DNA from: an uncultured Candidatus Saccharibacteria bacterium
GTDB lineage: Bacteria; Patescibacteriota; Dojkabacteria; SC72
Length of the DNA: 43,114 bases
Direction of reading: 5' to 3'
Assembly: GCA_964449955.1 (NCBI GenBank)
Contig: CAYVBS010000004.1
Coordinates: 1-43,114 of the forward strand
Position 1 is the stretch's first letter. Every line of letters begins with the position of its first letter. Positions 9,460 through 25,880 of this stretch are shown one piece after another. Both the position numbers and the translations under genes were made by a program. The notes below the pieces were generated by a model. That model worked only from the letters and a program-made list of their open reading frames with translations, had not been told where the DNA came from and made no database searches.

Positions 9460-9734
9460 TTTTGTTCTCTTTGTTTTCTAATATACTTTGTAGCATTTGT
9501 ATATTTTTTAGAAGATATGGAATATTTGCCAAACCTTTCTAGAAAACTTTTATCAGTTTCTTTGTAAGGGGTTTCCTGTTTTGCATCAGTGTAATCTTTT
9601 ATGCTGGTTAGTACAGCAATAGGGTCTTTCATCTTTTTGTAGCCAAGATATACTATCCCTCCATCCTTTACAAAGGAAAGTGCTTTAGAGGGATTTTTAT
9701 AAAACTCGGTTGTAGTATATATTTTTTTCTTCAT
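9456..9734 (-). CDS. Antitoxin of the VapBC pair (Phd/YefM-like N-terminus)
   Basis: 92-aa ORF overlapping vapC by 4 nt. TTTEFYKNPSKALSFV...PIAVLTSIKDY resembles the Phd/YefM fold signature. Operator palindrome lies immediately upstream. Confidence 0.6.
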   Translation of the reverse strand: MKKKIYTTTEFYKNPSKALSFVKDGGIVYLGYKKMKDPIAVLTSIKDYTDAKQETPYKETDKSFLERFGKYSISSKKYTNATKYIRKQREQK

Positions 9735-11036: not shown

Positions 11037-11987
11037 TTAATATTCTTCCCGTATGGCGTAAGTTCGAACCTTTCCATTTTCATGGTATGAACGAAGTATT
11101 AACTCTCCTAGTAGGCCAAAAGAAAGGAACTGAGTTCCCATGATTAATCCAAATACAGTGATCAGAAGAAGTGGGTTCTCTGTAAGGTCTGCTTGAGTTA
11201 GCATTTTATCCAATATTGCAGCTACTAGGCTAATAAAACTTACAAAGTATGTTATTAAAGCAAGGGGTCCCATAAACTGAATAGGAGTCTTCCTCTTCAT
11301 TGTTAAGAATTTTACATTGAGGATATCAAACATTACAGTTAAAGTTCTTCCAAAGCCATACTTACTCTTACCGTATTCTCTTCTTTTGTGGTGTACCTCT
11401 ATCTCTCCCATTTTTGCACCGTACATTCCAAGAAGGTATGACATGAATCGGTGTAACTCTCCATACAGCTTTATATCTTTAATAATGGGAGCTTTAACTA
11501 CTTTGACCATACAGCCAGTATCATGTATTCCTAGATCTCCAAATGCCATTTTCATCATTTTGTTGGCAGCTAGTGATGGCAATTTTCTTATTACATTACC
11601 CTGCCATCTGTTTTTTCTCCATCCAACTATAGCGTCTAAGTTATCTTCCTCAAGTTTCTCTATCATTTTTAGAAAATCTGCGGGGTCATCTTGATTATCA
11701 CCATCCATTGTTGCAATATATTGTCCCTTTGCTCTATCGATACCAGCCATTAATGCACCGCTTTGTCCAGTTCTGCTCATCAAGGTAATTCCATGTACAT
11801 TGGTATCCTCCAGGCTAATCCCTTTAATTATTTCCCCTGTACTATCAGAGGAACCATCATTGACCCAAATAACCTCATAGTCAATTTTACCTTCTAATTC
11901 TTCTTTCATTCTTTTGTGAATTAGGGGAATGTTCTCTTCTTCGTTGTAAACGGGTATAACTATAGATAGTTTTGGTTTGTTTAGCAT
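11037..11987 (-). CDS. GT2 polyprenyl-phosphate glycosyltransferase (GtrB/ArnC/DPM1-like)
   Basis: LSIVIPVYNEEENI, VNDGSSDST, DGDNQDDP (DxD), plus two C-terminal TM helices typical of this subfamily. Confidence 0.8.
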   Translation of the reverse strand: MLNKPKLSIVIPVYNEEENIPLIHKRMKEELEGKIDYEVIWVNDGSSDSTGEIIKGISLEDTNVHGITLMSRTGQSGALMAGIDRAKGQYIATMDGDNQDDPADFLKMIEKLEEDNLDAIVGWRKNRWQGNVIRKLPSLAANKMMKMAFGDLGIHDTGCMVKVVKAPIIKDIKLYGELHRFMSYLLGMYGAKMGEIEVHHKRREYGKSKYGFGRTLTVMFDILNVKFLTMKRKTPIQFMGPLALITYFVSFISLVAAILDKMLTQADLTENPLLLITVFGLIMGTQFLSFGLLGELILRSYHENGKVRTYAIREEY

Positions 11988-12113: not shown

Positions 12114-13502
12114 ATGAAAATCGCTATCATTGGTACCGGATATGTCGGTTTGACCCTATCAGCTCTCCTTGCTCGTGTTGGTTACAAAACATACTGTATT
12201 GATGTTGTACCAGAGAAGATCAAGACAATTAAATCCGGCAAATCATATTTCTATGAATTAGGTCTGGACAGTTTAGTTAAATATGGAATAGAAAGTGGCA
12301 ACCTAATTCCTACATTAGATTACAAAGAAGGGTTAAGTGATGTAGATATTGTATTTCTCTCTGTAGGCACACCTAGTGGTCCTAATGGTGGTTTTGATCT
12401 CTCATATATATACAGTGCAGTTGAAGATGCTGCGAAGTATGTAAAAGATGGTGTTATCTTTGTTCAAAGAAGTACTGTACCTGTTGGTACAGGTAGAGAA
12501 GCTATGAAGAGAATTGAGAAGGTAAACCCTAAACTTAAGTATACATATCTCTCATCTCCAGAGTTCTTAAGAGAGGGTGCTGCTGTACTGGATTCAATAG
12601 TACAGGATCGTATTGTAATAGGTGGGGATGATGATGAAGCTAAAGAGAAGATCTTTAAGATATTTGAGAAGATAGAGTTCCTTTCTGATGAGATATGTCA
12701 GAAGAATCCTGAGATTTCACAGTATGCTAATGCATATATGGTTAACAATAATCACTCAGAAGTGGAATTCGCAAAGAAGTGTATGAGTACTAAATTGGAA
12801 AGTGCAGAGTTGATCAAGGTATGTGCTAACTCAATGCTTGCTATGAAGATATCCTTTGCAAACAATATTGCTAGAATATGTGATAAGGTAGATGCAAATG
12901 TAAATGAAGTTATGGATGGTGTGGGAATGGATAGGAGGATTAATAGATCTTTCCTCTATGCAGGTATTGGATTCGGTGGTGGGTGTTTTCCTAAAGATGT
13001 TAAAGGTCTGATTAGATCTCTTGAAGAACATGATATCGATGCATCTCTTTTTAAAGCTGTTATGGATGTAAATATGGAACAGGTTGACTTTGTGGTAGAG
13101 AAGGTAAAGAAAGAAGCTGGAAATCCAAAGAGAGGTAAGGTAGGAGTGTTAGGTTTAGCATTTAAACCGGGTACTAGTGATATGAGGGTGTCTCCAGCAG
13201 GAAGACTTTGTAAAGCTTTAGCAAAAGAAGGCTTCAATGTAGTGGGTATGGATCCTCAAGCCATTGAAGAGGCCAAATTGGAGTTCCCAGAGGAGAAGAA
13301 TCTTAAATATGTAGAAGATGTTGAAGAGGTCTTTAAAGACTCAGAGATGGTTATACTTGCTACTGACTGGCCTGAGTTTAAAGAGTTGGACTACAAATCT
13401 CTATCCAAACTAATGAAGAAGAATAACTTCATAGATGCTAGAAACTATCTTGATGTAAAATCTATGGAGAAGATATTTAAATTTGATAATATTGGGGCAT
13501 AG
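12114..13502 (+). CDS. ugd: UDP-glucose 6-dehydrogenase
   Basis: N-terminal Rossmann motif IIGTGYVGL. Catalytic-Cys motif GFGGGCFPKD. LAFKPGTSDMR in the C-terminal domain. Confidence 0.85.
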   Translation: MKIAIIGTGYVGLTLSALLARVGYKTYCIDVVPEKIKTIKSGKSYFYELGLDSLVKYGIESGNLIPTLDYKEGLSDVDIVFLSVGTPSGPNGGFDLSYIYSAVEDAAKYVKDGVIFVQRSTVPVGTGREAMKRIEKVNPKLKYTYLSSPEFLREGAAVLDSIVQDRIVIGGDDDEAKEKIFKIFEKIEFLSDEICQKNPEISQYANAYMVNNNHSEVEFAKKCMSTKLESAELIKVCANSMLAMKISFANNIARICDKVDANVNEVMDGVGMDRRINRSFLYAGIGFGGGCFPKDVKGLIRSLEEHDIDASLFKAVMDVNMEQVDFVVEKVKKEAGNPKRGKVGVLGLAFKPGTSDMRVSPAGRLCKALAKEGFNVVGMDPQAIEEAKLEFPEEKNLKYVEDVEEVFKDSEMVILATDWPEFKELDYKSLSKLMKKNNFIDARNYLDVKSMEKIFKFDNIGA

Positions 13503-14471
13503 ATGAAGATCTTAGTAACAGGTACAGCAGGATTTATTGGTCATGCTCTCGCAAAGGTATTACTTGAAAGAGGTGATACTGTTGTAGGAGTAGATAACTT
13601 CAATGATTACTATGATGTACAGCTTAAGGAAGATAGGAACAAGGAGTTGGAGAAGTATGAAAATTTCAAATTGTACAGAGTAGATATTTCTAACCTAGAG
13701 GATCTAAAGAAGGTTTTTGATGAGAATAATTTTGATGTTGTATGTAATCTAGCTGCACAGGCAGGGGTTAGGTATTCAATAGATAATCCATATGTATATG
13801 CTGATGCTAATCTGGTAGGTTTTGTTAACATTATAAATCTTACTAAGGATAAGGGTATAAAGCATTTTGTATATGCTTCTTCTAGCTCTGTGTATGGTGA
13901 TACCGGAGAAATTCCTTTTACTGAAACTCAGGATGTTAACAATCCCATTTCTTTGTATGCTGCTAGTAAGAGGAGCAATGAGCTAATGGCATATACGTAT
14001 CATCACTTGTTTGGTTTAAGAACTATTGGTCTTAGATTTTTTACTGTCTATGGTCCATGGGGTAGACCAGATATGGCAATATTCAAATTTGCTAATCAGA
14101 TGGTTAAAGGAGAGGAGATTCCTGTGTATAACTATGGTAAGGATTTGAAGAGGGACTTCACATATATTGATGATATTGTAGATGGTGTTGTTAGAGCTAT
14201 TGATTGTAATTATGAGAATGAAATATTTAATCTTGGAAAGGGTAGCCCTGATGAATTAGGATATATGATAGATACTTTAGAGAAGCATATGGGTATTAAG
14301 GCTAAGAAGAACTTACTTCCTATGCAAAAGGGTGATGTGTTGATAACATATTCTAATACGAGTAAGGCAAAGAGGATGTTAGGTTATGACCCAAAAGTTA
14401 CATTAGATGAAGGTATAGAGAAGTTTGTGGAGTGGTATAAGGGGTATTATGAAATAAAGTATCTTAAATAA
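13503..14471 (+). CDS. UDP-glucuronate 4-epimerase (SDR, GalE-like)
   Basis: VTGTAGFIG, NFNDYYDVQLK (typical of the GlcA-epimerase clade), ASSSSVYG, YAASK. The start codon directly abuts the ugd stop. Confidence 0.75.
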   Translation: MKILVTGTAGFIGHALAKVLLERGDTVVGVDNFNDYYDVQLKEDRNKELEKYENFKLYRVDISNLEDLKKVFDENNFDVVCNLAAQAGVRYSIDNPYVYADANLVGFVNIINLTKDKGIKHFVYASSSSVYGDTGEIPFTETQDVNNPISLYAASKRSNELMAYTYHHLFGLRTIGLRFFTVYGPWGRPDMAIFKFANQMVKGEEIPVYNYGKDLKRDFTYIDDIVDGVVRAIDCNYENEIFNLGKGSPDELGYMIDTLEKHMGIKAKKNLLPMQKGDVLITYSNTSKAKRMLGYDPKVTLDEGIEKFVEWYKGYYEIKYLK

Positions 14472-14476: not shown

Positions 14477-15058
14477 ATGGTAGATTTTAGATCTAGTTAC
14501 ATTAGACTGAGAGGCGTGTTCTTTTCAAAGATACTTCAATTATTGGGAGATATTGAATTGGGAAAAAACCTTAAGCTTAGAGGTCTGCCTCTTGTGTCTA
14601 CTGAGAGAGGAGGAAAGATATATATTGGTAACAATGTAGTACTTGATTCTAAGAATAAAGGATATCATACTAACATGTTTGCACCTACAAAGCTGTACGC
14701 AAGTGGGGGAACGATACGAATTGGTGATAACTGTAGAATCCATGGCGCATCATTCCATGCAAGGGGCGATATCACTATCGGAGAACATTGTCTAATTGCT
14801 GCAAATACCATAATCATGGATTCAAACGGTCATAAGGTTGTACCAAGAAACGGTAAAAAACGAACAGAGTCTAGAGATCGTCCAAAGCCAGTAATTGTCG
14901 GAGATGATGTTTGGATAGGGATTGGTGTTTTGATACTCCCTGGTGTTAAGATTGGCAATGGTGCGGTTATAGCTGCCTGTAGCGTTGTTAGTGCTAATGT
15001 TCCAAATAACTGTATAGCAGGTGGAGTACCAGCAAAGATTATAAAAGAGCTAACTTAA
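14477..15058 (+). CDS. Left-handed beta-helix (hexapeptide repeat) sugar O-acetyltransferase
   Basis: Hexapeptide repeats IGDNCRIHG, IGEHCLIAA, VGDDVWIGIGVLILPGVKIGNGAVIAA. Confidence 0.75.
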   Translation: MVDFRSSYIRLRGVFFSKILQLLGDIELGKNLKLRGLPLVSTERGGKIYIGNNVVLDSKNKGYHTNMFAPTKLYASGGTIRIGDNCRIHGASFHARGDITIGEHCLIAANTIIMDSNGHKVVPRNGKKRTESRDRPKPVIVGDDVWIGIGVLILPGVKIGNGAVIAACSVVSANVPNNCIAGGVPAKIIKELT

Positions 15059-15069: not shown

Positions 15070-16347
15070 ATGTTTAGTAATGTCAATTCATATCTGTCTA
15101 AGAATCTGAAACAGTCAAAGAACTTCTTTTCCTTTTCTTTGCTTAGGGCCTTAGGAGAAGGACTGTTTTACATATTACCATTGTTACTAGCAAAGTTTCT
15201 TACTCAGGAAGACTTTGCATCGTTCTCATTAATTCAAATGGTTGTGATGATACTGATAACTGTGCTTTTAACTTCCGCTCAAACCCCTATTGTTGTGTAT
15301 GCAAATAAGGAACTAGCTAAAAGTGGTTCTGTTAACAGAACATTCACTATTCAACTTCTGTTCTTGTTCATTTCAGTTGTGACTGGCGTTGGAGCTTTAC
15401 TTGTGTTTAAGTCATACTTCCTTTCTTTTACGCATATTGAAGATATATTGTTTAGCTCAGTATTTTTCTTCTATATCTCGCTAAATCTGAAAATATTCTT
15501 TGAGAATCTTTTCCTCTCACTCAACAGAAGGAACATGAATGCTCTGTATGCTATTTTAGTTGGCGTATTGAGTGTTTTACTATTATTGATTTATAACTAC
15601 TACAATCAACTGGATTTGGGTGCTGTGTTTCAAATATATTTCATATCCTCTGTAGCAGTATCCTTAATAAGTACGCTATTACTGCTTAAGGAAAAACTTT
15701 TCCCATTGGAATTTGACGGTAAGATATTAAAGGAGGTTTTTAAGTGGTCTTCATGGCAAATATTTGGACTGCTTAGTGTACAGTTAATAAACTGGGGAGA
15801 TAATATTGTGCTTAGATACTTTGTAGATCTTGAACAGATAGCTGTATACAACCTTGCATACCAGGTATTTAAAGGATTGGTTGGTGCTACCTTTATCATA
15901 AGTACTTACTTCCTACCTTATTTAACACAAAATGTAGATAATATTCAGAAACTTAAAAGTTATCTTTATGTCAAAAGAGTTAAGATTATAATATTAGCAG
16001 TACTCTTGATCTTATTTACAATAGCAATTACCCCATTAGTCCTTCCTAAAATATATGGACCAGATTATCAAGGTGCCGTACCGATTCTAATGGTTCTGTT
16101 GATAGCTTTGATGTTCCATACATACTCAGTGTTCTATGTTCCTTTGTTCAATGTTACTAATAGATACACTTTCCTTCAGATCTTTAATGTTCTTCAGGTC
16201 ATTCTAAACCTAGGATTAGATGTAATATTGATATCTAAACTAGGAATAATAGGAGGTGCCTATGCAACTCTCTTTAGCTATAGTGTGCGAGCACTCGCGA
16301 ACGAGGTTTACTTTAGAAAGAACTTCCCAGAAATAAGAAAGACTTAG
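15070..16347 (+). CDS. wzx: Wzx-type (MOP superfamily) oligosaccharide flippase, copy 1
   Basis: 425 aa with about 12 predicted TM helices. Polysaccharide-biosynthesis-protein-like N-terminus. Located in the glycan operon. Confidence 0.65.
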   Translation: MFSNVNSYLSKNLKQSKNFFSFSLLRALGEGLFYILPLLLAKFLTQEDFASFSLIQMVVMILITVLLTSAQTPIVVYANKELAKSGSVNRTFTIQLLFLFISVVTGVGALLVFKSYFLSFTHIEDILFSSVFFFYISLNLKIFFENLFLSLNRRNMNALYAILVGVLSVLLLLIYNYYNQLDLGAVFQIYFISSVAVSLISTLLLLKEKLFPLEFDGKILKEVFKWSSWQIFGLLSVQLINWGDNIVLRYFVDLEQIAVYNLAYQVFKGLVGATFIISTYFLPYLTQNVDNIQKLKSYLYVKRVKIIILAVLLILFTIAITPLVLPKIYGPDYQGAVPILMVLLIALMFHTYSVFYVPLFNVTNRYTFLQIFNVLQVILNLGLDVILISKLGIIGGAYATLFSYSVRALANEVYFRKNFPEIRKT

Positions 16348-17699
16348 ACTTCTGATAATGTATAGAGATATTTACCACTTTTTAAAGTTGGAATATCTTT
16401 GACTTCTTGCCATTCTATTTGACAGTCATTTCCCATGACTTCCTGTATGGAACTTTCAATCTTTGAAACGTACTGCTGGAAACTGTTTTTATCTTTCATT
16501 ACCACTTTTATTACTAGATAATCATAATCTTTCTGTATTACCTGGAACTTTCTAATAAATCCAGTATTAAATACTACTCCTATAAAGTGAATAAAGAATT
16601 CGCCAGGTATTAATCTGCCGTCCCTTGTTTTGAATACACTCATCTCCCTACCTTCAACACTCTTTATAAGAGGTAAGCCTCTGCCACAGGAACATTTAAT
16701 ATCTGCTGCAACTGTACCTAAATCTCCAATATCATATCGTATTAATGGCATTGAGTAATTATTAAGTGTTGTAACATATATTTTACCTGTTTCGTTAGGT
16801 TTACAAGGTTTTAAATTTTTATCTAGAATCTCAACATAGTTATGTATAACATCTACATGCAGACCTTCATTTCTTTCACAACTGCATGCCACATCTCCAA
16901 CTTCTCTTGACCCATATCGGTTAAACACTGGGGCATTGAAAGCTTTCTGGATGACAGATCTTATTTCTGGATATAGTGTGCCTGCGGAAGTAATTACTCC
17001 TTTAGGAGTATGTATATTTTTACTTTCCTTATTTATATATTGACTTATTTCGTATACTGATTGTACATAACCCTCTATAATAGTTGGCTTAAATTTGTTG
17101 ATCTCCCTTATATACTTATCAAAATTTTCTGGAGACATTCTGAAAGAATTAAGAATTCTTCGTCCAGAAAAGAAGTTCTGTATGTTAGCCTTCAATCCAT
17201 TTCCACCAACGAGAATATCTCTTTCAGAACCCCACAGTTTTATTAACCTTGAAGGATACTTACTAATGAAAGAATAGAAAAACCACTTAGTTGCCATCCC
17301 TTCTACCCAGGTTCTTCTATCTCTTATAAAATTAACAGGGTTACCTGTTGATCCACCAGAATGATTTAGATAAGACTTCCTTTTCTTCTGTTCAGCATCT
17401 CTCGATTTTAAATCATCAAAATTCTTCTGAATGATATCTTTTGTTAAAATAGGAATCTTTGAGAAATTCTTAAGATTTACCAATTTTGTTTTTGGATCAA
17501 CTACATCCGCTTGGGCTAAAACTTCTCGGTAATAAGGTACATTACTATAAGAGTGTAGAAGCACTTTCTCTAAATTCCTTCTTTGTAATTCTAGGTTTTC
17601 TTCAATATGGTTGTACTCAAGTTCCTTTAACTCGTTGTATGGTTTAAAAATATCTTTTCCAGAGAGTTTGAGTAGCACTTGTAATATCAAATTTCTCAC
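16344..17699 (-). CDS. Adenylate-forming enzyme, PaaK/CapK/F390-synthetase-like, copy 1
   Basis: SGGSTGNPV (AMP-binding core), YGSREVG, YDIGDLG, C-terminal LKSGKYLY. GTG start overlaps the upstream TGA (GTGA). Confidence 0.7.
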   Translation of the reverse strand: MRNLILQVLLKLSGKDIFKPYNELKELEYNHIEENLELQRRNLEKVLLHSYSNVPYYREVLAQADVVDPKTKLVNLKNFSKIPILTKDIIQKNFDDLKSRDAEQKKRKSYLNHSGGSTGNPVNFIRDRRTWVEGMATKWFFYSFISKYPSRLIKLWGSERDILVGGNGLKANIQNFFSGRRILNSFRMSPENFDKYIREINKFKPTIIEGYVQSVYEISQYINKESKNIHTPKGVITSAGTLYPEIRSVIQKAFNAPVFNRYGSREVGDVACSCERNEGLHVDVIHNYVEILDKNLKPCKPNETGKIYVTTLNNYSMPLIRYDIGDLGTVAADIKCSCGRGLPLIKSVEGREMSVFKTRDGRLIPGEFFIHFIGVVFNTGFIRKFQVIQKDYDYLVIKVVMKDKNSFQQYVSKIESSIQEVMGNDCQIEWQEVKDIPTLKSGKYLYTLSEV

Positions 17700-18778
17700 T
17701 TAGTTATGATCTTTAAAAACTTAGCAGAGTTTATAACAATATCATGGTTCTCTTTAGCATATTTATAAGCATTTTCAGATAAGGCATGGAGTAGTTCTGG
17801 TCTCTCCAAAACTTCTTGAAATTTAGTTTTAAGGGCATCCATATCATTATCAGTCACAAATCCACATTTATATTTTGTTATGAATTCATTTGGGTTAACA
17901 TTAAGTGAGAGTATTGGGACCTTTGATTTTGTAGCTTGTATCAGTGTGTTCTGAAAACCTTCAGAAATAGAAGTTGTAACATACATTTTAGCATGTTCAA
18001 AATAGTAATCAATCTCATCAAATGGAACAAAATCTATAAATTTTACATTTGAAAGGATCTTTGCTTTCTTCTTAATGTCTTCTGAAAACTGTGGATTTTC
18101 TGTTGAAGGTGGACAGATTATTACGAACTTCTCTTGGGGATAACTTCTAGCGAGTTCTAAAAACAGTTCAGGTCTTTTCCACGGTTCAGATCTTCCGACC
18201 CACAAAGTGTATGCCCTCTTAGAGGGTAATTGTGTGGATATTGGATATGAGGAGTTAAGTATTACTGCACTAATCTTTTTATTACTCCTTAATTGCTCTT
18301 TTTGATAGCTATTCTGTACAATAACGATATCGGAGAACCGAAAGGTTAAATTTGCTAATATCGAAGTTATAAAGTTATGTTTCTTTTCATATTCTCCATC
18401 TGTTTGGGTGTCATGTGCAATCATATATATAGTTCTTTTCCTCATCAACTTAAGTAATAGGGTTATCACCCCAGTTTGAGGAGTTAATGCACGCTGAATA
18501 TAAATATCAGCTCTCACTTGTTGTACTACTAACAATAGTTTATATACATTCCACAGAATATTCCTAGAGAAATCGAAGCTGTTCCATACACTAACTTTTT
18601 TTATATTTTCCTTTAGGGGTTGCCCAAAGTTTGAAACTAAGAAATGAATTTCTAGATTCTTGTTTTTTGTTAAAGCAGTTGCTAATAAATACATTTGTAC
18701 TTCTGCACCTCCGAAAGTTTTCTTCACCTGAGGATTAAAAAGGGGATAGGCTTTGGGTGATATAAAACAGATTCTCAT
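17696..18778 (-). CDS. GT4-family (GT-B fold) glycosyltransferase
   Basis: FGGAEVQMY N-terminal motif. C-terminal SISEGFQNTLIQATKSKVPIL (E-x7-E region). Confidence 0.7.
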   Translation of the reverse strand: MRICFISPKAYPLFNPQVKKTFGGAEVQMYLLATALTKNKNLEIHFLVSNFGQPLKENIKKVSVWNSFDFSRNILWNVYKLLLVVQQVRADIYIQRALTPQTGVITLLLKLMRKRTIYMIAHDTQTDGEYEKKHNFITSILANLTFRFSDIVIVQNSYQKEQLRSNKKISAVILNSSYPISTQLPSKRAYTLWVGRSEPWKRPELFLELARSYPQEKFVIICPPSTENPQFSEDIKKKAKILSNVKFIDFVPFDEIDYYFEHAKMYVTTSISEGFQNTLIQATKSKVPILSLNVNPNEFITKYKCGFVTDNDMDALKTKFQEVLERPELLHALSENAYKYAKENHDIVINSAKFLKIITK

Positions 18779-20118
18779 TTTATATTACAGATAGTATATA
18801 AATGCTTCCCGCTCCTAGTTTTAGGGATATCTTTTACAAAATGCCACTTAACCTTAAATTCTTTACCCATTAACATTTTTGTTTTCTCTTCTATATCTTT
18901 CATCTCCGCTTCATTCTCTTCTCCTACGATACTGATCTCTATCTTGTCATATTCATTTTGAACAGCCTGAAACTTCTTGATCCAGTTTCTAAAGAAGAGT
19001 TGTTGTACTAAAAAGTGACTATGTTTAAGGGTTCCATCTTTCTTTTTAAAGAATCCCAGCGTTCTCCCTATGACTGGTTTTGTAGTCAGGTAAGAAACAG
19101 TATCTCCTATTTTATAAGATTTATTACCTTCCTCTGCAACATCTCCAATACTGTACCTGATTAAGGGCATAGAATAGTTATCAAGACATGTTATCACTAT
19201 TTCTTTTTCAGAAGTTGAACCTTCTAATTCCAAAATTTGTCTCCAGATACATACTTCCATCTCTCCATTTTCATTTTCTAAAGAGATGGCCCCAACTTCT
19301 CTTGATCCATACTGATTAAATACTTTACTTCCAAAAGCTTTTTCAATGATAGCTCTATTCTTTTCATAAAGGGGGCCACTAGTTGTAATTATCAGTTTCG
19401 GAGAGTATAGTCTTATTTTGTTTGTCAGTATATATTTACTAAATTCATAGACTGCGTCTACATATGTCCAGTAGGAAGCGGGTTTAAAGTGGTTATTTAA
19501 CTTAACTAATTCATTCATAGCTTCTTCTGAAAAATCGTAGCAATTAAAAAACCTGCGGTTGTATAAATAGTTAATAATGCGATCTTTAATCGTCAAATTC
19601 CCTTTAATTATGTCAACGTCTGAACCCCACAATTTAACCTCTTTCTCTCCAAGATCTTTTCCATGTTTTGAAAAAAAGTAAATTTTAGTAGCAATGTTTC
19701 CATAGTCATACTCTTTATCCTGTAGAAAAGTTACAGGCTCTCCTGTGCTTCCACCAGAGGAATTTTGGTAAGAATGCCTCTGAATATGTTCTTTCGAATA
19801 TAGATTAGCTCCTTCGCGACGGATTATTTCTTTCGTTAGAATTGGAATTTTACTAAAATTCTCTAAAAATACTTCTCCATTTTTCATTACTCCTGCCTCA
19901 CTAAGGATTTTACGGTAGTAAGGAACATTTTTGTAAGAGTATAGAAGTAGATTCTTTAACTTCTCTTTTTGTATTTTTACCTTTTTATCAAAAGGATAAT
20001 TCTCTAATGTTTTTATCTCTCTTAGCTTTTGAGGTACTTTACTTCCTGATAATCTCAGAAGTAAGAGAATAGTTGGTTTACGCCAGTTTATCATATAGCC
20101 TCCTATAGCTTTGGGCAA
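18775..20118 (-). CDS. Adenylate-forming enzyme, PaaK/CapK-like, copy 2. The start may be Met9 at 20094.
   Basis: SGGSTGEPV, YGSREVG, YSIGDVA, C-terminal RSGKHLY. Clear paralogue of 16344..17699 (NVPYYR..., NFSKIPILTK shared). Confidence 0.7.
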   Translation of the reverse strand: MPKAIGGYMINWRKPTILLLLRLSGSKVPQKLREIKTLENYPFDKKVKIQKEKLKNLLLYSYKNVPYYRKILSEAGVMKNGEVFLENFSKIPILTKEIIRREGANLYSKEHIQRHSYQNSSGGSTGEPVTFLQDKEYDYGNIATKIYFFSKHGKDLGEKEVKLWGSDVDIIKGNLTIKDRIINYLYNRRFFNCYDFSEEAMNELVKLNNHFKPASYWTYVDAVYEFSKYILTNKIRLYSPKLIITTSGPLYEKNRAIIEKAFGSKVFNQYGSREVGAISLENENGEMEVCIWRQILELEGSTSEKEIVITCLDNYSMPLIRYSIGDVAEEGNKSYKIGDTVSYLTTKPVIGRTLGFFKKKDGTLKHSHFLVQQLFFRNWIKKFQAVQNEYDKIEISIVGEENEAEMKDIEEKTKMLMGKEFKVKWHFVKDIPKTRSGKHLYTICNIK

Positions 20119-21193
20119 CCTCTTGCCAACTCAAATTTTCAGCTAATTTACGAGAGGTTTTGCCCATTTTTTTAAGTAAATTACGATCGTCTTTCAATCT
20201 AAGAATTATAGAGCGTATTGCATCTGAGTCTCTCGGCTGAACTATAAAACCATTATCTTTGATTAACTCCTCTGAACCACCTACGTTTGTTGTAATAATA
20301 GGTAATCCAGATGCCATAGCTTCCAATATGGAATTACTCATACCTTCATTTAGAGAAGGTAATATAAAGAGATCTTTTTGAGCAAGAATTGAGGGTATTT
20401 TCTTGTGGGGTTGTTTATCCATAAAATCTACATTTAGTTTGCATTTCATCGCAATAGCTACAAGATTTTCTTTCTCAGGTCCGTCTCCCACTAGTGTTAG
20501 TCTGATACCTTCCATTCCTTTGATTGCTTCCAAGAGGTAATTATATCCTTTTATTGTTGCTAGTCTACCTGTTGATACAATTTCCAAGGTTTTGTTGTTT
20601 TCTTTAGCGTTGCCCGGTCTGAATTCATATATATCTACACCGTTTGTAATTATTTCTATATCTTTGTTGAGTTGAGGCATAATGCCTTTGGCAAACTCCT
20701 TCATACCTTTTGAGTTTGCTACTAGAATATTCGACTTATTCCAGATTAACTGGCTTAGTCTTTTAAAGAGTAACTTATCTAAAATTTGATGTTTTTGATT
20801 ATAGAAGGGGACATCGCTTCCTCTAAGGCTAACAATGTAGGGTAGACCTAAAAGCATTGCAATAAAGCCAGATGGTATTCCAAAAAAGGCATGGCATATA
20901 TCGTATTTATTTCTCTGCATTAGCTTTCTTGCATAAAAATATGATTTGAATGAATATGTTATAAGATCTTTATAACTTTGAAAATGCAAATTTCCCTTCT
21001 TGCCAATGTTTAATTGATGAATAGTAATATTGTTCCCTAAAGTTTCTACCTTATACTTGTCTATTGATGAAGTTACCAAATCAATGACTAAATCTTTGTT
21101 TTTAGAATATTCCTTTAACAGGTAGTAATTTGCATTTGCAGCTCCTCCTCCTAGAGGAGGGTACTCATAGTTTAGGAAAAGAATTCTCTTCAT
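20078..21193 (-). CDS. GT4-family glycosyltransferase
   Basis: YPPLGGGAANA N-terminus. PSLNEGMSNSILEAMASGLPIITTNVGG (E-x7-E). Confidence 0.8.
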   Translation of the reverse strand: MKRILFLNYEYPPLGGGAANANYYLLKEYSKNKDLVIDLVTSSIDKYKVETLGNNITIHQLNIGKKGNLHFQSYKDLITYSFKSYFYARKLMQRNKYDICHAFFGIPSGFIAMLLGLPYIVSLRGSDVPFYNQKHQILDKLLFKRLSQLIWNKSNILVANSKGMKEFAKGIMPQLNKDIEIITNGVDIYEFRPGNAKENNKTLEIVSTGRLATIKGYNYLLEAIKGMEGIRLTLVGDGPEKENLVAIAMKCKLNVDFMDKQPHKKIPSILAQKDLFILPSLNEGMSNSILEAMASGLPIITTNVGGSEELIKDNGFIVQPRDSDAIRSIILRLKDDRNLLKKMGKTSRKLAENLSWQEVAQSYRRLYDKLA

Positions 21194-21213: not shown

Positions 21214-23274
21214 TTAATTACTAATTGGTTCCCAGTAATATATATCAAAACCCTTTTCGCCCTCTGTAGAGAGTAAGTAATGAATGATGTTGTGGGCGGT
21301 GTATGAATCTTTAAGTGGGAAACCATTGCTGTTCCATTTTGTATTACGATCTTTATCAATTATCATCCATCCAGAACCTATTTTTTTCATTACTTTAGTG
21401 ATTCTTTCTTTTTCATTTAAAGTACAAACTTTATCTAGACATTCTTCTCCTAAGTAAGGAGTTGAGTACTCAGTTCCGTATCCATTATCGCTACTTATAT
21501 AATAATAATGATCTACGGTTGTATAATCATACCAGAACTCTCCATTATCTTTATACATAAACCTTTTTAAGGGATAGCTTTCGGTATCTTCTTTGTTTAT
21601 AAATGTATATTCATTCATCCAATAGCCGAACATATCTGATCTTGTAGTTATTACTTTATCTCCTGGTTTATATCCTAAATTGTAGAGAGTATCGAAAAGG
21701 ACCTTATGGTCGTAATGTGAAATTCCTGTTTTTGGGTCTAGATAATTAGGATCTTCTGTTAATAATCCTTGGATAACATTAAAAGGTGAAAAGAGGATAA
21801 ATAGAACTAATACACAAGCATATTTTATATAGTGTTTAATGGGTAGTGTTAGAACTATCTCTAACACTTTGGATATTGCTATGGATAGAATTAGTATAAA
21901 AATAGGTATAGCAAAATATATATATCGAGCACCAAAATACCGGTCTGAAAGTAGTACAAAAGGTAAGAGGGATAAAAGGAGCATTAAGTAGAAAGCAATG
22001 ATTGTAATTCTGTTCTTTTCTATTGTTAATGGCACTATAGAAAATAATATAAAGAGAGCGCTTGGTATAAGGGGTATAGCTGGATACCACATTAGTCTGA
22101 ATGAGCTTCCTCCGTATATAGGATTAAAGAGCATATTTATGTAGTCAGTGTTTATATTGAAAGAATTTATCAACCAAGAATAATCAGTTAGTATAAAGTA
22201 GACGACAGCTAAAGTAAGAACACCAAGAGTTAACATGAGAAGTACTTTATAGAATTGTTTTAGACTAAGAAACGTAATCCAGATTCTTTGCATATTCAAG
22301 ATAACGAGTAGAATTACTTCGGCTTCCCAGGTAATTAATATACCACCAGACTGTGTATCTAGGAGGAAATAAAATGCTAAGACTATATTTACTATCAAGA
22401 AGAACAGGGGTTTATATAGCTTCGTTAGTTTTACATTTTTTATAAAATCGTTAAGGATAAGTGTACTTACAATAGCTAATAGGAAGAAGAAAATAAGATA
22501 TTCATAATCTCTAATGTACCTTGCCATGCCGACAGCTAAAGGGCTAACTGAGAATAAATAGGCTGAAATAAGACCTACTTGCTTTGATATTCTAGAACCA
22601 ATAATCGACATTAAGAAAGTAGATATTACCCCTAGTAAAACTCCTGGGAGTCTTGATAGGAAGATGTTAGAGCCAAAATACTTGTAAATTACCGTTAAAA
22701 GTTCTGTTAAGAACACACTTCTGGGATATCCGAAAGATCCAGTTAAGAAGTTCTTTTTTGCAGCTAACAAATTATAGTATTCATCTACAGCAGGTGGTAA
22801 AAAATCAAGATTATAGATTCGCAGGACTAAAGCCACTATTAAGATACATATCAAGATTGCTGTATAGAAACGAGAATTAATATCTTGTGTTTGCTTTTGT
22901 CTGCGGATATACTGATTATCGAATGTGTTATATCCTATTAGTAAAAGTGTTGTAACAGATGTGAATATGAAAATGTCTGTAATATAACCTAGAGTTAGGT
23001 TTTCATGGAATTTGGATTGTAAGTATATAGAAAGTAATAAAGCTATGATACAACCTCCACCTATTCTAAGGGAGTATTTGTTAAAGATACGACACTGTGA
23101 TTGTGAAATTAAGAAGATATATGTAACTACTAACAATATACTTCCCCAGTAAAGAAAAAAATTAAACGGACTTGGTATTCTTATACCTGCCTCTGTTAAC
23201 CAAAGGGTATTAAAAAGGGTTAGAATTAGAATTAAGCTTAAACTGATTTTTTTAATAAGGTTTAGATTCTTCAT
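21214..23274 (-). CDS. GT-C fold membrane glycosyltransferase (ArnT/PMT_2-like) with a C-terminal soluble domain
   Basis: 686 aa with more than 12 TM helices. First-loop acidic motif PPAVDEYYNLLAAKK. About 170-aa non-hydrophobic C-terminal domain. Confidence 0.6.
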   Translation of the reverse strand: MKNLNLIKKISLSLILILTLFNTLWLTEAGIRIPSPFNFFLYWGSILLVVTYIFLISQSQCRIFNKYSLRIGGGCIIALLLSIYLQSKFHENLTLGYITDIFIFTSVTTLLLIGYNTFDNQYIRRQKQTQDINSRFYTAILICILIVALVLRIYNLDFLPPAVDEYYNLLAAKKNFLTGSFGYPRSVFLTELLTVIYKYFGSNIFLSRLPGVLLGVISTFLMSIIGSRISKQVGLISAYLFSVSPLAVGMARYIRDYEYLIFFFLLAIVSTLILNDFIKNVKLTKLYKPLFFLIVNIVLAFYFLLDTQSGGILITWEAEVILLVILNMQRIWITFLSLKQFYKVLLMLTLGVLTLAVVYFILTDYSWLINSFNINTDYINMLFNPIYGGSSFRLMWYPAIPLIPSALFILFSIVPLTIEKNRITIIAFYLMLLLSLLPFVLLSDRYFGARYIYFAIPIFILILSIAISKVLEIVLTLPIKHYIKYACVLVLFILFSPFNVIQGLLTEDPNYLDPKTGISHYDHKVLFDTLYNLGYKPGDKVITTRSDMFGYWMNEYTFINKEDTESYPLKRFMYKDNGEFWYDYTTVDHYYYISSDNGYGTEYSTPYLGEECLDKVCTLNEKERITKVMKKIGSGWMIIDKDRNTKWNSNGFPLKDSYTAHNIIHYLLSTEGEKGFDIYYWEPISN

Positions 23275-24875
23275 AGTGATTCTCTATATAAACGGATATT
23301 TTGGAAAACAGATGGAGAGAGGGATCTTTTGAATAGTACTTTTAGATCAGAATAATCATATATGTCAGAGTTAACAATGTTACCGCTTGGCTTAATGGAG
23401 GAGTTTTTAAATATTGTATTTATATAGACTTCTTGATTTCCTATATCTGTACTTGCGTCATATTGAGAATTGGAAGTCCAAATGTCTATCTTTGAACTAA
23501 TCTTGTGTCTGTAAAAGTTATATTCTTGTAATCTCTGGAATTCCTGTAAATCCTTACTCAGATCTAAATTCCTAAACTCAAAAAGATGGGAAACTGATTT
23601 GTTAAACATAGTATAAAAACTTTCTGTAAAACATAAGGTAGAATTTTCACCCTCTTGTTTTAAAGGTGTTATAACAATACCTGGCTCAATAAAATAATTT
23701 GCAAAAGATTCTTGGTAGAAGTTTACTACATATGGAGTCCCGAACACTTGTTTATTTGGTGCTAGGTTTATCCCCAATATGGTTACAGGGAACTCAGGAG
23801 TTTCTATCTGCACATCCCCGGGTGCAATATCAATTATTAAAGGATTTTGTGGGGTGTGTTGCTGGGTCAGAACATAATCTTTGCTATTAATAGTAAACGT
23901 AACTTCTTCGCGAAGATCAAGTTCGGGATATATAATGAGGTGTGTATTCCGAAGTATCTTAGAGTATAGAGTTGTTTTAGAGTTTATGATTGTTACTTTC
24001 TCTGTAGTGGAGTAAATAGTATTTGATTTGATCTCCCGTATACATGTTTCAGCTGTTGTTTCAGATGGATAAATATCTATGGTGTACCATCCTTCTTTGA
24101 AATTACTAATATCGTCTGCTTTTATAGAGATAACTTGGTTACTTAGTTCTTGAACGAAGTGCTTAACTGTAGAATCTAACATGTTTTGAGCTTTTAACCC
24201 TGTCGTTACTTCGTTAATGTTATCAGAACGGATCATACCTGTAGATAGCTCTAAGTAGGAGTGCTCCTTAAGATATGTATAAAGTGTTACTTCTCCACAC
24301 AGATTAGTGCCACTCGTTGTGTTTATTTCTGATAGAACGGAAATTTCTTCTCCCGGGTTGTTTATAAATTCCTCCTTGTGCAAACTAAGATATTGAGATG
24401 GCATTTCTATGTAGTTTATATCCATTGTATTTAAACACTCAGTAAGGCTAGTGCATCGATTATCTTCAGCATATAAATAGAGATTTTTTTCTAAGGTAAT
24501 AGGTCTGCGGTCTTTTAAATATTGACGGTATATAGGATCGGAATAAGCGGTATTATAATAGAGTTGCCAGTTATCCTGGGTCTTAAAGGTACCTGAAATG
24601 CACATATCCTTATTATGTATAAAAGGAGGGGTGTTCAGGGTAAGGTAAAATGCACTGCTTGGGAATTCTTTAATATCACTAATATTGCTATTGCGTTCGT
24701 AGTAGCTATTCATTAACCCAAATGCAGAGATTTGATACTCCGAAGTTTGTACGTCAGAGGTAATATCACCTATATATAAAGTAAAGGGCTTTCTTAGTAA
24801 AGCTATATATAATAGAATGAAGAAAACAAAAAAACAGATTGTTATTATAGCGGGATATTTGAAATCTTTAACCAT
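23271..24875 (-). CDS. N-terminally anchored extracytoplasmic protein of unknown function
   Basis: Single N-terminal TM (AIITICFFVFFILLYIALL). 500-aa Asn/Ser/Thr/Tyr-rich soluble part. 4-nt overlap with the downstream GT-C gene. Confidence 0.5.
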   Translation of the reverse strand: MVKDFKYPAIITICFFVFFILLYIALLRKPFTLYIGDITSDVQTSEYQISAFGLMNSYYERNSNISDIKEFPSSAFYLTLNTPPFIHNKDMCISGTFKTQDNWQLYYNTAYSDPIYRQYLKDRRPITLEKNLYLYAEDNRCTSLTECLNTMDINYIEMPSQYLSLHKEEFINNPGEEISVLSEINTTSGTNLCGEVTLYTYLKEHSYLELSTGMIRSDNINEVTTGLKAQNMLDSTVKHFVQELSNQVISIKADDISNFKEGWYTIDIYPSETTAETCIREIKSNTIYSTTEKVTIINSKTTLYSKILRNTHLIIYPELDLREEVTFTINSKDYVLTQQHTPQNPLIIDIAPGDVQIETPEFPVTILGINLAPNKQVFGTPYVVNFYQESFANYFIEPGIVITPLKQEGENSTLCFTESFYTMFNKSVSHLFEFRNLDLSKDLQEFQRLQEYNFYRHKISSKIDIWTSNSQYDASTDIGNQEVYINTIFKNSSIKPSGNIVNSDIYDYSDLKVLFKRSLSPSVFQNIRLYRESL

Positions 24876-24884
24876 TTTTACAAC

Positions 24885-25880
24885 ATGCTAAAGTACTCAG
24901 TAATTATTATAACCTGGAATAGTCTATCATACATCAAACAGACACTTCCAGCACTACTTAAACAGAAATATTCTGATATTGAATATATCTATGTAGACAA
25001 CGGATCTAATGATGGAACAGTAGAATATATTAAAGAAGAAATAGAGAGGAATAAAAATAAAAATATAAAACTAATAGAAAATAGTCAAAACCAAGGAATT
25101 AGTATTGCTAAAAATCAAGGAGTAAATGCAAGTACAGGAGAGTACCTTTTACTATTGGATGATGATATGTTAATAGAAAATCCTGATTTCGTATCAAATT
25201 TAGTTAATTACTACAATAAACTAGAAAAGCCTGCTTTTCTAATGCCATTCTTCTTAGATACAGAAGAACTCGAAAACGGTCTCACAATGACATACGGTAC
25301 TTACTATTACCCCTTTGGTGTTAAAAAGAAGAAAAAGAAAATCCACTACCAAAACATCCTCAACTATGAGAAAGAAATTCCAATAGCTATTGCACAAGGA
25401 GGAGCAATGTTTGTAAAAAGGGACATATGGAATGAACTAGGAGGTTTTGATGAATCTCAAAAGTTCAATCTAGATGACGATGATATCTCAACAAGAGCAC
25501 TAGTGTATGGCTACACGAACTACCTCTACAACAAAGAATACATTATTCACTTAGGTCTAAGTAAAAGAAAAGATCCAAAAAGATATGCATGGAATGATAG
25601 AACGTATTACTCTGGTAAAGCTAAATCAATATTAAAGAATTTTAATCCATTTACAGTACTATGGATGCTCTTCCTCTTTACAGGTAGGGCATTAACAGAA
25701 GCCTTGTATCACTCAATACAAATGAAACATGCTAATATATTCATATCTAATATCTATTCAATATATCTCTTTGTAAGAGATATCCCAGATACACTTAAAA
25801 AGAGAAGAGTAATACAGAAACACAGAAAGATATCAGATAGTAAAATTCTAGAATTAAAACAACCGGAATATGAACATTAA
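24885..25880 (+). CDS. GT2-family glycosyltransferase
   Basis: YSVIIITWNS, VDNGSNDGT, LLLDDDM (DxD). Confidence 0.8.
   Translation: MLKYSVIIITWNSLSYIKQTLPALLKQKYSDIEYIYVDNGSNDGTVEYIKEEIERNKNKNIKLIENSQNQGISIAKNQGVNASTGEYLLLLDDDMLIENPDFVSNLVNYYNKLEKPAFLMPFFLDTEELENGLTMTYGTYYYPFGVKKKKKKIHYQNILNYEKEIPIAIAQGGAMFVKRDIWNELGGFDESQKFNLDDDDISTRALVYGYTNYLYNKEYIIHLGLSKRKDPKRYAWNDRTYYSGKAKSILKNFNPFTVLWMLFLFTGRALTEALYHSIQMKHANIFISNIYSIYLFVRDIPDTLKKRRVIQKHRKISDSKILELKQPEYEH

Follow-up and report, generated by a model that had tools for sequence, protein, structure and literature searches.

The window, meaning the whole 43,114-nt stretch of DNA that was analyzed, belongs to an uncultivated bacterium, probably of a candidate phylum. 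It carries a minus-strand surface-sugar operon in which two CapK-type adenylate-forming ligases alternate with two glycosyltransferases of family 4 (GT4), next to plus-strand sugar genes and a flippase gene:

23271..24875, minus strand: protein of unknown function, 534 aa, with a hydrophobic N-terminal segment; first gene of the operon, overlapping the next by 4 nt
21214..23274, minus strand: polytopic membrane protein, 686 aa; operon member, 20 nt upstream of GT4b
20078..21193, minus strand: GT4b, GT-B family 4 glycosyltransferase, 371 aa, opening cassette 1 (Pfam Glycos_transf_1 and Glyco_transf_4)
18775..20094, minus strand: ligase B, CapK-type adenylate-forming ligase (revised ATG start; alternative TTG at 20118)
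17696..18778, minus strand: GT4a, GT4 glycosyltransferase, 360 aa, opening cassette 2 (Pfam Glycos_transf_1)
16344..17699, minus strand: ligase A, CapK-type adenylate-forming ligase, 451 aa, GTG start
15070..16347, plus strand: Wzx-type flippase (Pfam Polysacc_synt, 5e-12)
14477..15058, plus strand: hexapeptide-repeat O-acetyltransferase (Pfam Hexapep; top NCBIfam model WbbJ-like)
13503..14471, plus strand: SDR 4-epimerase, most likely a UDP-GlcA 4-epimerase (PDB and NCBIfam matches)
12114..13502, plus strand: Ugd, predicted UDP-glucose 6-dehydrogenase (TIGR03026, TuaD; three UDPG_MGDP_dh Pfam domains)
11037..11987, minus strand: ArnC/GtrB-like GT2, putative polyprenyl-phosphate glycosyltransferase (PDB ArnC/GtrB matches)

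The ORF calls agree exactly with the minus-strand order GT4, ligase, GT4, ligase and with the coordinates given in an earlier note on this DNA, which had also listed overlaps of 41 or 17, 4, and 4 nt. Both 4-nt overlaps were confirmed, as an ATGA at the ligase B/GT4a junction and a GTGA at the GT4a/ligase A junction. The GT4b gene stops at TAA 20078–20080; a ligase B start at TTG 20118 gives 447 aa and the 41-nt overlap, and a start at ATG 20094, with AGGAGG 6 nt upstream, gives 439 aa and the 17-nt overlap, the latter being likelier because homologue alignments start near this ATG. The flippase and ligase A genes are convergent, and their stops overlap by 4 nt. As had been claimed, the two ligases are paralogous (37% identity, E 9e-93). 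GT4b and GT4a share only 21% identity (Glycos_transf_1 at 1.5e-33 and 2.3e-21, respectively). A local duplication of the cassettes was rejected; each belongs to an old type of its own, and the two types have been combined here.

The two ligases have the PaaK fold and are intact as adenylate-forming enzymes. The adenylation motifs read in them earlier, SGGSTG(N/E)PV, YGSREVG, RY(D/S)IGD, and SGK, are intact in each and fall in invariant columns of the family alignments. Indeed, the P-loop GGSTGxP, YGSRE, RYxIGD, the GR hinge, and the C-terminal GK are all invariant columns in both, and ligase B retains every family-invariant residue. The four-Cys motif is absent from ligase B and from its closest relative (L055). 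Structure modeling, which had been suggested as a check, gave confident PaaK-like folds (AF2 pLDDT of 91.2 for ligase A and 88.9 for ligase B; best Foldseek E ~1e-29). Over the PaaK-family structures matched, Foldseek E ranged from 1e-29 to 1e-26 and TM from 0.60 to 0.70, the best folds for ligase A being BT_0428 and PaaK1/2. PaaK-family enzymes were the best PDB matches in sequence as well as in fold, bearing out the placement of the ligases in the PaaK branch. Judging by these motifs and confident predicted folds, both window ligases look functional. Public annotations label the family phenylacetate-CoA ligase.

With the PaaK enzymes of E. coli, Burkholderia (PaaK1/2), and Bacteroides (BT_0428), the ligases share the two-domain fold, the P-loop, YGxxE, RYxxxD, the GR hinge, and the C-terminal GK, but only 21–27% identity; the window has no paa operon, and the clade of the window ligases is set apart by a specific conserved motif, KLWGSERDIL, an N-terminal extension, and a context that is always glycan assembly. 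The HMM of this clade scored ligase B at 543 bits (clade members, 468–612). NCBIfam models for PaaK, for F390-synthetase-related proteins, and for DVU_1553 match the ligases, all far under their cut-offs (for PaaK, TIGR02155, 75 and 42 bits vs 646). The ligases might, like coenzyme F390 synthetase, transfer a nucleotide, attaching AMP or GMP to a glycan or cofactor hydroxyl with no carboxylate activated, and ligase A does match TIGR03335 (9e-15) and TIGR02304 (6e-20). However, these matches reach 54 bits vs a cut-off of 459 and 72 vs 252, weaker than the PaaK-type matches, and no structure or precedent ties such chemistry to glycans. Moreover, the phenotype of the related Vibrio cholerae VpsH is a loss of glycine, with no loss of nucleotide (PMC13463779), and nucleotidyl transfer appears highly improbable.

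The gene neighborhoods of 80 related loci, with 92 ligase genes, were then surveyed. A same-strand GT4 gene lies directly upstream of 27 of the 92 ligase genes, where within-locus shuffles of gene order give 9.7 ± 2.8 and none of 2000 reached 27. Ligase similarity follows the similarity of the adjacent GT4 (Mantel r 0.58; 0 of 5000 permutations reached it). The pairing, translationally coupled in the window, is beyond chance, and ligase and neighboring GT4 co-diverge. GT4b-type genes lie directly upstream of ligase-B-type ligases (L055, L078, L064, L039, L036, and others), and GT4a-type genes upstream of ligase-A-type ligases (L001, L003, and L008). GT4::ligase fusions also occur, one in Heimdallarchaeota on three contigs under three accessions (P0241) and further ones from three sources (P0297, P0390, and P0391). 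We propose that each window ligase and its own GT4 act together as a unit. Two further fusions, each seen once, join a ligase with Wzx (P0274) or with an LPG_synthase_TM region (P0260) and count in favor of a membrane or lipid-linked stage.

These associations bear on whether the enzymes are ordinary acid-CoA ligases making an unusual acyl-CoA, with which a separate acyltransferase (e.g., that encoded at 14477–15058) would acylate the glycan. The fold and motifs match PaaK-type CoA ligases, the gene for an LbH acyltransferase is 1.3 kb away, and the public label of the family is that of a CoA ligase. Conversely, the ligases are coupled to, co-inherited with, and sometimes fused with GT4, Wzx, and membrane regions, not acyltransferases, and a hexapeptide acyltransferase directly adjoins a ligase in only 1 of the 80 loci (L007). 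The window has two ligases for one acyltransferase and no paa or acid-catabolic genes, and the curated PaaK model scores both ligases far below its cut-off, all of which makes an acid-CoA ligase role distinctly unlikely.

Other genes accompany the ligases across the family. ArnC/GtrB-like GT2 homologues are found upstream of GT4b-ligase in 17 of the 80 loci, and homologues of the 686-aa membrane protein travel with the cassettes in L001, L002, L003, L009, L015, and L017. This protein matches only TIGR03663 (Agl23, 6.7e-7), and weakly, with nothing in Pfam or the PDB; it is possibly a GT-C-type transferase. The 534-aa protein had no match in Pfam and NCBIfam searches and has a weak homologue in L009. 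The strongest partners of the family are DUF362 or a CapA-type protein (PGA_cap), which are mutually exclusive. Neither was found in the window, whose enzymes may do a simpler or different job than their relatives.

The window Ugd matches TIGR03026 with 393 bits (cut-off 189.8), its best specific model being TuaD (356 bits), and is predicted to supply UDP-GlcA. The SDR matches PDB entries 5u4q (3e-107) and 6zl6–6zll (8e-48), then WbpP and WbgU, as well as NCBIfam TviC (5.7e-40). We take 6zl6 to be a UDP-GlcA 4-epimerase, and the SDR is most likely one too, which would supply UDP-GalA. The GT2 matches ArnC (9bhc, 8vxh; 1e-42) and GtrB (5ekp; 9e-23). The earlier note named UDP-GlcA and UDP-GalA as the only carboxylates provided by neighboring genes, and Pfam scans of 38 ORFs (all window ORFs of at least 90 aa but 11) found no gene for another carboxylated sugar. 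No gene in the window indicates a particular amine. Co-occurrence of the ligases with uronate genes, another check suggested earlier, is present but modest: only 20 of the 80 family loci have a gene of the Ugd family or a GAE-like one within 10 kb, or 32 of 80 with AsnB and GFO neighbors added, both being raw counts. Among the nearest relatives, uronate supply is seen in L009 (Dojkabacteria), where ugd, sdr, GT4b, a methyltransferase, the ligase, DUF362, and GT4a run in one direction; in L055, where a GAE-like sdr is directly upstream of GT4b-ligase; and in the fusion locus L090, which has Ugd and an SDR.

The earlier statement that no reaction in glycan assembly had been assigned to this family is outdated. 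In V. cholerae, the PaaK/CapK-like VpsH is needed for the glycine amidation of a uronate, on the lipid-linked BPP-Glc-GulNAcA and before VpsI acts; this evidence, from 2026, is genetic, and its authors left the activation chemistry undetermined (PMC13463779). The same paper mentions the serine transferases of E. coli K40/K54 (PMC13463779). Authentic V. cholerae VpsH (P0188) carries PF27533 (CapK_C), as does ligase A, for which the precomputed Pfam domains are CapK_C and AMP-binding, and the adenylation motifs are shared; the two proteins are 23% identical over 433 aa (E 1e-29), and GT4b is 31% identical to VpsI over 200 aa. The window-clade HMM gives VpsH orthologues 215–222 bits vs 122–142 for true PaaKs, and in an NJ tree VpsH groups with the window clade, with the PaaKs outside. 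The vps locus, of the Wzx/Wzy type, has in common with the window a sugar-nucleotide (6-)dehydrogenase, an LbH acetyltransferase, and Wzx, the window O-acetyltransferase being the analogue of VpsG, which adjoins VpsH. In addition, a 4-nt overlap joins vpsH to vpsI, the GT4 gene that follows it, exactly as with ligase B and GT4a. The predicted net reaction would be the same, a uronate carboxyl and an amine giving an amide on a lipid-linked intermediate.

There are also differences. The HMM scores of VpsH are well below those of window-clade members (468–612 bits), and VpsH is a single copy in the order ligase then GT4, whereas the window has two GT4-then-ligase cassettes, the order enriched in the clade. 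The uronate of the vps pathway is a HexNAcA that WecB/WecC make and a WecG-type GT adds, whereas the window genes would give GlcA and GalA. The window ligases were rejected as VpsH orthologues (23–26% identity, separate branch), and the carry-over of function to such distant enzymes may fail.

By analogy with VpsH, ATP-dependent activation of a uronate carboxyl to give an amide is the reading with the best precedent, and amidation by the window ligases at two successive steps is our best reading, with about an even chance of being right. The central idea of the earlier note, ATP-dependent activation of a uronate carboxyl, finds support in VpsH. That the carboxylate is a uronate, which amine is used, that the step is lipid-linked (rather than on the nucleotide sugar), and how the steps are ordered are what we infer. 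Ugd and the 4-epimerase would provide UDP-GlcA and UDP-GalA, and at the cytoplasmic side of the membrane a GT4 would attach a sugar to an intermediate linked to polyprenyl. Its partner ligase, with ATP, would convert the C6 carboxylate of a uronic acid residue into an acyl-adenylate and hand the acyl group straight to an amine without CoA, forming an amide. The amine would most likely be a free amino acid, with ethanolamine and taurine as other candidates. The next GT4 would lengthen the chain and the second ligase repeat the amidation; the decorated, O-acetylated unit would then be flipped by Wzx and passed to an acceptor outside.

As this mechanism requires CoA-free acyl transfer, the behavior of NatL2, AjiA1, ClxA, and BagE/FevW is relevant, since these enzymes transfer their acyl-adenylate, with no CoA involved, directly to O or N nucleophiles. 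They share the fold and rank high among the matches in sequence and in fold (the natural-product enzymes ClxA, NatL2, and AjiA1 among the latter), but their substrates, in natural-product clusters, are aromatic amino-hydroxy acids and not sugars, and they are 16–22% identical to the window ligases. ATP-grasp uronate amidoligases, such as the C-terminal domain of C. jejuni Cj1438 and the serine transferases of E. coli K40/K54, couple an amine or amino acid to the glucuronate of a capsule, the net reaction proposed for the window, but with an unrelated fold and chemistry (acyl-phosphate vs acyl-adenylate). Scans of 38 window ORFs found no ATP-grasp domain. In O-antigen and capsule loci, glutamine amidotransferases of the AsnB type make uronamides, likewise modifying the carboxyl through an adenylate, but they belong to another family (PF00733 plus GATase) and deliver only ammonia. 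AsnB-type genes occur in 13 of the 80 loci of the CapK-type ligase family, and none was found in the window.

The polarity could also be reversed, with a free small acid (amino, hydroxy, or aryl) adenylated and moved to a hydroxyl or amino group of the growing glycan to give an ester or an N-acyl sugar, so that the sugar would act as nucleophile and not as acid. The characterized PaaK-family matches use free acids: phenylacetate (PaaK), 2-hydroxyisobutyrate (HCL), 3-amino-4-hydroxybenzoate (ClxA), and salicylate analogues (NatL2). A NodB-type polysaccharide deacetylase fused to one family ligase (P0247) could expose a sugar amine and hints at a de-N-acetylated sugar amine as partner in some members, and DegT aminotransferases occur in 8 of the 80 loci. 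The PGA_cap neighbor is related to MslH, an epimerase of C-terminal residues (PMC10406935), which would fit any appended amino acid. However, no aminotransferase or deacetylase gene giving a free sugar amine was found in the window, by tblastn for DegT homologues across its whole length or by the Pfam scans of 38 ORFs, and DegT genes are rarer near the family than uronate-related genes (20–32 of 80). VpsH, the only member with genetic data, sits where the sugar gives the carboxylate, and we consider the reversed polarity rather unlikely.

Uronate amidation remains the preferred reading. Since a reaction of the family was genetically assigned in 2026, the window operon would represent no new kind of system but a plausible variation on one.

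The four genes under study lie on the minus strand in the order GT4, ligase, GT4, ligase that the earlier note had described, and the ORFs bear out the coordinates claimed for them. Each GT4 and the ligase behind it are referred to as a cassette, and two further genes of the same operon stand upstream:

23271-24875, minus strand, ORF for a 534-aa protein of unknown function, same operon as the cassettes
21214-23274, minus strand, ORF for a 686-aa polytopic membrane protein, same operon as the cassettes
20078-21193, minus strand, ORF for GT4b
18775-20118 from TTG, or 18775-20094 from ATG, minus strand, ORF for ligase B
17696-18778, minus strand, ORF for GT4a
16344-17699, minus strand, ORF for ligase A

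The 534-aa and 686-aa genes overlap by 4 nt, and a gap of 20 nt separates the end of the latter, whose product has no match in the PDB or Pfam, from GT4b. Direct reading of the sequence also reproduced the overlaps of 41 (or 17), 4, and 4 nt proposed for the cassette junctions. GT4b ends with a TAA at 20078-20080, which gives a 41-nt overlap if ligase B starts at the TTG at 20118; the ligase B/GT4a and GT4a/ligase A junctions are an ATGA and a GTGA overlap of 4 nt each. The alternative ligase B start, the ATG at 20094, has an AGGAGG 6 bases upstream and coincides with the beginning of the homologues, so an overlap of 17 nt, with a ligase B of 439 aa, is more likely than the 41-nt version. At the head of the operon, only 9 bp (window 24875-24885) separate the annotated divergent starts of 23271-24875 (minus strand) and of a GT2 gene at 24885-25880 (plus strand), which means that one of the starts has been miscalled or that the promoters sit within a coding region.

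The two ligases are 37% identical (E 9e-93), and the two GT4 proteins just 21%. The adenylation motifs that had been reported as intact were found in both ligases, namely a P-loop (S/T)GG(S/T)TGxP, YGxxE, (R/Y)xxGD, the GR hinge, and the catalytic C-terminal Lys, all on columns that are invariant in alignments with 33-36 homologues (G115/G116/S117/G119/P121, Y262/G263/E266, R321/Y322/D326, G350/R351, and G442/K443). AF2 models, with a pLDDT of 91.2 for ligase A and 88.9 for ligase B, showed the two-domain PaaK fold. A Foldseek search, run with the ligase A model only, matched 4r1l (E 4e-29) and PaaK1 2y27 (E ~1e-27); the best folds were BT_0428, PaaK1/2, and 2-hydroxyisobutyryl-CoA ligase, followed by ClxA, AjiA1, and NatL2. 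The last three, also of the PaaK family, transfer the adenylated acyl group to oxygen or nitrogen nucleophiles instead of CoA. By sequence and modelled fold, both ligases belong to the PaaK-like branch of the ANL superfamily. We consider it quite improbable that ligases A and B are plain CoA ligases feeding an acyltransferase.

Curated models placed the ligases near PaaK and F390-synthetase-related families, far under every cut-off. PaaK proper was rejected (TIGR02155, 74.6 bits for ligase A and 41.5 for ligase B against a cut-off of 646), as was a paa catabolic context, since the window neighbors are GT4, Wzx, Ugd, and epimerase genes and all 80 related loci are glycan loci. Coenzyme F390 synthetase lies in the same curated neighborhood, but its model, TIGR03335, gave just 54.2 and 23.9 bits against a cut-off of 459, and an F390-type nucleotidylation seems very remote. 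An ATP-grasp uronate amidoligase was also rejected, the ligases having no ATP-grasp Pfam match and their modelled folds being ANL; nor was an ATP-grasp domain found by Pfam in any other scanned window ORF (all ORFs of at least 90 aa except 11).

Ligase A carries four cysteines, C272, C274, C336, and C338, in two CxC motifs (ACSCE and KCSCGRG), a pattern present in at least 90% of its relatives that may form a metal site. Ligase B is without all four, as is its nearest relative at locus L055, and the VpsH orthologues retain both cysteines of the second CxC and a single one from the first.

The 80 loci, obtained by a genome scan of very diverse bacteria and archaea, hold 92 ligase genes, with a GT4 directly upstream on the same strand, mostly overlapping, in 27 cases. 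Gene-order shuffles within loci gave an expectation of 9.7 ± 2.8, and none of 2000 shuffles reached 27; a GT4 directly downstream of the ligase (14 cases) was not significant by the same shuffles. Ligase similarity correlated with that of the adjacent GT4 (Mantel r 0.58, 0/5000 permutations), a correlation to which shared organismal descent contributes. Fusions of the two genes recur, one in Heimdallarchaeota on three contigs (P0241) and a second cluster from three sources (P0297, P0390, and P0391). One-off fusions join the ligase to Wzx (P0274), an LPG_synthase_TM region (P0260), DUF362, a NodB deacetylase (P0247), or a second ligase, and these singletons could be gene-calling artefacts; the fusion proteins seen also include P0251, P0242, P0277, P0300, P0335, and P0372, and there is a fusion locus at L090:9717-12236.

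In the tree, ligase A groups with ligases that follow GT4a-type genes (L001 and L008) and ligase B with those that follow GT4b-type genes (L055, L078, L064, L039, and L036). Because the two ligases fall into distinct old subclades, which are paired with different types of GT4, the window combines two old cassette types, and a recent tandem duplication of cassettes was ruled out. Two to four ligases are found in 11 loci. The nearest relatives of both window ligases come from DPANN-type archaea and other candidate-phylum bacteria, among them Candidatus Dojkabacteria (L009), Pacearchaeota (L001), archaeon ADurb.Bin336 (L055), and Pacebacteria (L078). The window and L009 are syntenic (GT2c 72%, Ugd 69%, and SDR 81% identical), and the part of the window with GT4b, ligase B, GT4a, and ligase A corresponds in L009 to GT4b, methyltransferase, a single ligase, DUF362, and GT4a. 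The pattern suggests cassette turnover and exchange across the bacterial-archaeal divide.

The earlier note held that this family had no assigned reaction in glycan assembly; the genetics of VpsH in V. cholerae has overtaken that statement (PMC13463779). In a July 2026 study that profiled lipid-linked intermediates in vps mutants, ΔvpsI accumulated BPP-Glc-HexNAcA bearing glycine, while a glycine-free disaccharide built up in ΔvpsH ΔvpsI (PMC13463779). The authors call VpsH PaaK/CapK-like and leave an acyl-adenylate route open (PMC13463779). No other member of the family is known to be needed for linking an amino acid to a uronate as an amide, and for VpsH the evidence is genetic. Our literature search for a second glycan precedent of the family turned up the VpsH paper alone.

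The vps cluster was located first in a Vibrio chromosome-2-like plasmid-set record, where VpsD and VpsF score above the NCBIfam cut-offs and the order is wecB, wecC, D, E, F, G, H, I, J, K; V. cholerae VpsH and its locus were obtained by a protein search. The domain PF27533 (CapK_C) is precomputed on ligase A (P0001), its homologues, V. cholerae VpsH, and the GT4 fusion, and ligase B is tied to the family by its score of 543 bits against an HMM built from 90 clade members.

Scores against the clade HMM
Ligase A, 612 bits
Ligase B, 543 bits
Deinococcus 'CapK', 468 bits
VpsH orthologues, 215-222 bits
Bacteroides PaaK-like, 142 bits
E. coli PaaK, 122 bits

Clade members score 468-612 bits on this HMM against 215-222 for the VpsH orthologues, and in a neighbor-joining tree rooted on PaaK, VpsH is an early branch inside the clade, separate from the window ligases. 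The latter are therefore relatives of VpsH within the same family and not its orthologues, orthology being ruled out by an identity of 23-26% (for ligase A, 23% over 433 residues, E 1e-29), by the HMM gap, and by the separate branches. The genes are coupled in the same way in both systems, vpsH and the GT4 gene vpsI sharing a 4-nt overlap as ligase B and GT4a do. The V. cholerae locus has VpsB with vpsH/vpsI; the window has Ugd and a 4-epimerase 2-4 kb off, with GT4a in 4-nt overlaps, and is likewise a uronate-making polysaccharide locus in which a GT4 adjoins a CapK_C ligase.

The two genes relevant to uronate supply are:

12114-13502, Ugd, a UDP-glucose-type nucleotide-sugar dehydrogenase, above the TIGR03026 cut-off, with TuaD as the best specific model
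13503-14471, SDR 4-epimerase, matching 5u4q (3e-107) and 6zl6-6zll (8e-48) ahead of WbpP and WbgU

The structures 6zl6-6zll, for which the PDB table gives a generic name, we take to be the Bacillus cereus UDP-glucuronate 4-epimerase, and the SDR likely supplies UDP-GalA. Homologues of DegT, AsnB, GFO-type oxidoreductase, DUF362, and PGA_cap were absent from the window by whole-window tblastn, and Pfam detected no pyruvyl transferase or nonulosonate gene in 38 window ORFs (all those of at least 90 aa except 11). Hence, for the genes examined, the claim holds that no sugar carboxylates other than uronates are encoded locally.

Across the family, 20 of the 80 loci, and 16 of the 57 full-length ones, have a gene of the Ugd family or a GAE-like SDR (≥40% identity to the window SDR) within 10 kb, a raw count for which no enrichment is claimed. 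Adding AsnB-type amidotransferases and WbpB-like oxidoreductases raises it to 32/80, and DegT is found in 8/80. Among the closest relatives the association stands out more. L055 has a GAE-like SDR immediately 5′ of its GT4b-ligase pair, the fusion locus L090 has both Ugd and SDR, and L009 carries ugd, sdr, GT4b, methyltransferase, ligase, DUF362, and GT4a in a single direction. Family-wide, the co-occurrence of the ligase clade with uronate genes is modest.

An ArnC/GtrB-like GT2 lies upstream of the GT4b-ligase pair in 17 loci, often accompanied by a GAE-like SDR, a PMT_2-type GT-C, an LPG_synthase_TM protein, and methyltransferases. The module runs in the order GAE-like SDR, ArnC/GtrB-like GT2, sometimes PMT_2 GT-C, GT4b, ligase, and LPG_synthase_TM protein or methyltransferase (L002, L003, L012, L015, L017, L027, L029, L036, L039, L055, L062, and L064). 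Two window genes are candidates for the enzyme that initiates the glycan of the cassettes:

11037-11987, ArnC/GtrB-like GT2, window copy (PDB ArnC, 1e-42)
38581-39219, small phosphoglycosyl transferase (Bac_transf, 5e-54), 17 kb from the cassettes

By analogy, the GT2 module looks like assembly on a polyprenyl-phosphate carrier, flipping, and GT-C transfer, as in archaeal N-glycosylation or the Arn pathway. Methanococcus maripaludis AglU/MMP1084 is reportedly needed for a threonine amide on an N-glycan uronate, a case that is not used as evidence here.

Elsewhere in the window, 24885-29614 holds a GT2, a second Wzx, another GT2, and a membrane protein of 505 aa, the homologue of which in L015 matches PMT_2, and 36299-39219, past secA, holds two further GT4 genes and the phosphoglycosyl transferase. 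Two large predicted surface proteins, one near each end of the window (28-3144 and 39899-41998), have in common a ~265-aa module near their C-terminal ends (33% identity, E 6e-48), with hydrophobic segments and CarboxypepD_reg domains; their N-terminal parts differ, one being glycine-rich and the other Ig-like. Beside the glycan island, a 92-aa ORF (9456-9734, minus strand) is followed with a 4-nt overlap by a PIN-domain protein (9082-9459, minus strand; 3e-12), a pair that looks like a VapBC-type toxin-antitoxin.

The strongest neighbor association of the ligase is with DUF362, which lies immediately 3′ of it for 14 of the 18 DUF362 genes (for example L009:9751-11205), where 1.6 were expected and 0/2000 shuffles matched. 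A PGA_cap/CapA-type protein of metallophosphoesterase fold flanks the ligase in 14 other loci (for example L030:825-1982). The two are mutually exclusive, either one occurring in 32 loci and both in none, and both are absent from the window and from the vps clusters, VpsJ being unrelated to DUF362 and to CapA. Single-sequence and profile searches found no relative of DUF362 with a solved structure. MslH, a Ca-dependent enzyme that epimerises C-terminal residues (PMC10406935), is distantly related to the PGA_cap proteins, and one may speculate from this kinship that the latter process an appended amino acid.

In the main proposal, which is the best explanation and which we judge about as likely as not, each of the two GT4 enzymes has a VpsH-like step tied to it, and both steps would amidate carboxyls of uronates carried by a lipid-linked intermediate. 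Activation of a uronate carboxyl at two steps, as first proposed from the operon, is favored by the VpsH precedent, the shared PF27533, and the adjoining uronate genes, and is weakened by the modest family-wide uronate link. A transfer of a free acid onto the sugar by the ligases is unlikely.

Uronate amidation by a member of the family has been known genetically since 2026, and the operon of the window would be a variant of it. As far as we found, three things are new: evidence that GT4 and ligase make up cassettes that are inherited together and at times fused, the presence of two stacked cassette types in one candidate-phylum bacterium, and the DUF362/PGA_cap partners of the ligase across the family. 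A bolder reading, which as a whole we hold to be doubtful, would make these portable and stackable GT4-CapK modules of the type 'add sugar, decorate its carboxyl', exchanged between archaea (DPANN and Asgard) and candidate-phylum bacteria. In it, two to four ligases would write distinct amides in a defined series or, stepwise, a short peptide on the uronate, and in numerous lineages a dedicated DUF362 or CapA/MslH-like partner would process the residue further, for example by epimerisation to the D form. Such a peptide would be built much as Mur ligases build the peptidoglycan stem stepwise, but via acyl-adenylates. If true, amino acids would reach surface glycans by a non-ribosomal route that is both widespread and uncharacterised.

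Capsules, O-antigens, biofilm matrices, and archaeal N-glycans change in charge and antigenicity when their uronic acids bear amide-linked amino acids or amines, and the enzymes that attach amines to uronates are known in few cases. The CapK_C family has ~3,200 representatives at 50% clustering (E ≤ 1e-30) in bacteria and archaea, still annotated as 'phenylacetate-CoA ligase'. If window-type enzymes act as VpsH appears to, a function could be assigned to thousands of misannotated genes, one could predict from the GT4-ligase pairing which repeat-unit sugar is decorated, and the small two-cassette operon would be a handy biochemical system. The surface-glycan chemistry of unculturable candidate-phylum bacteria would also come into view for the first time.
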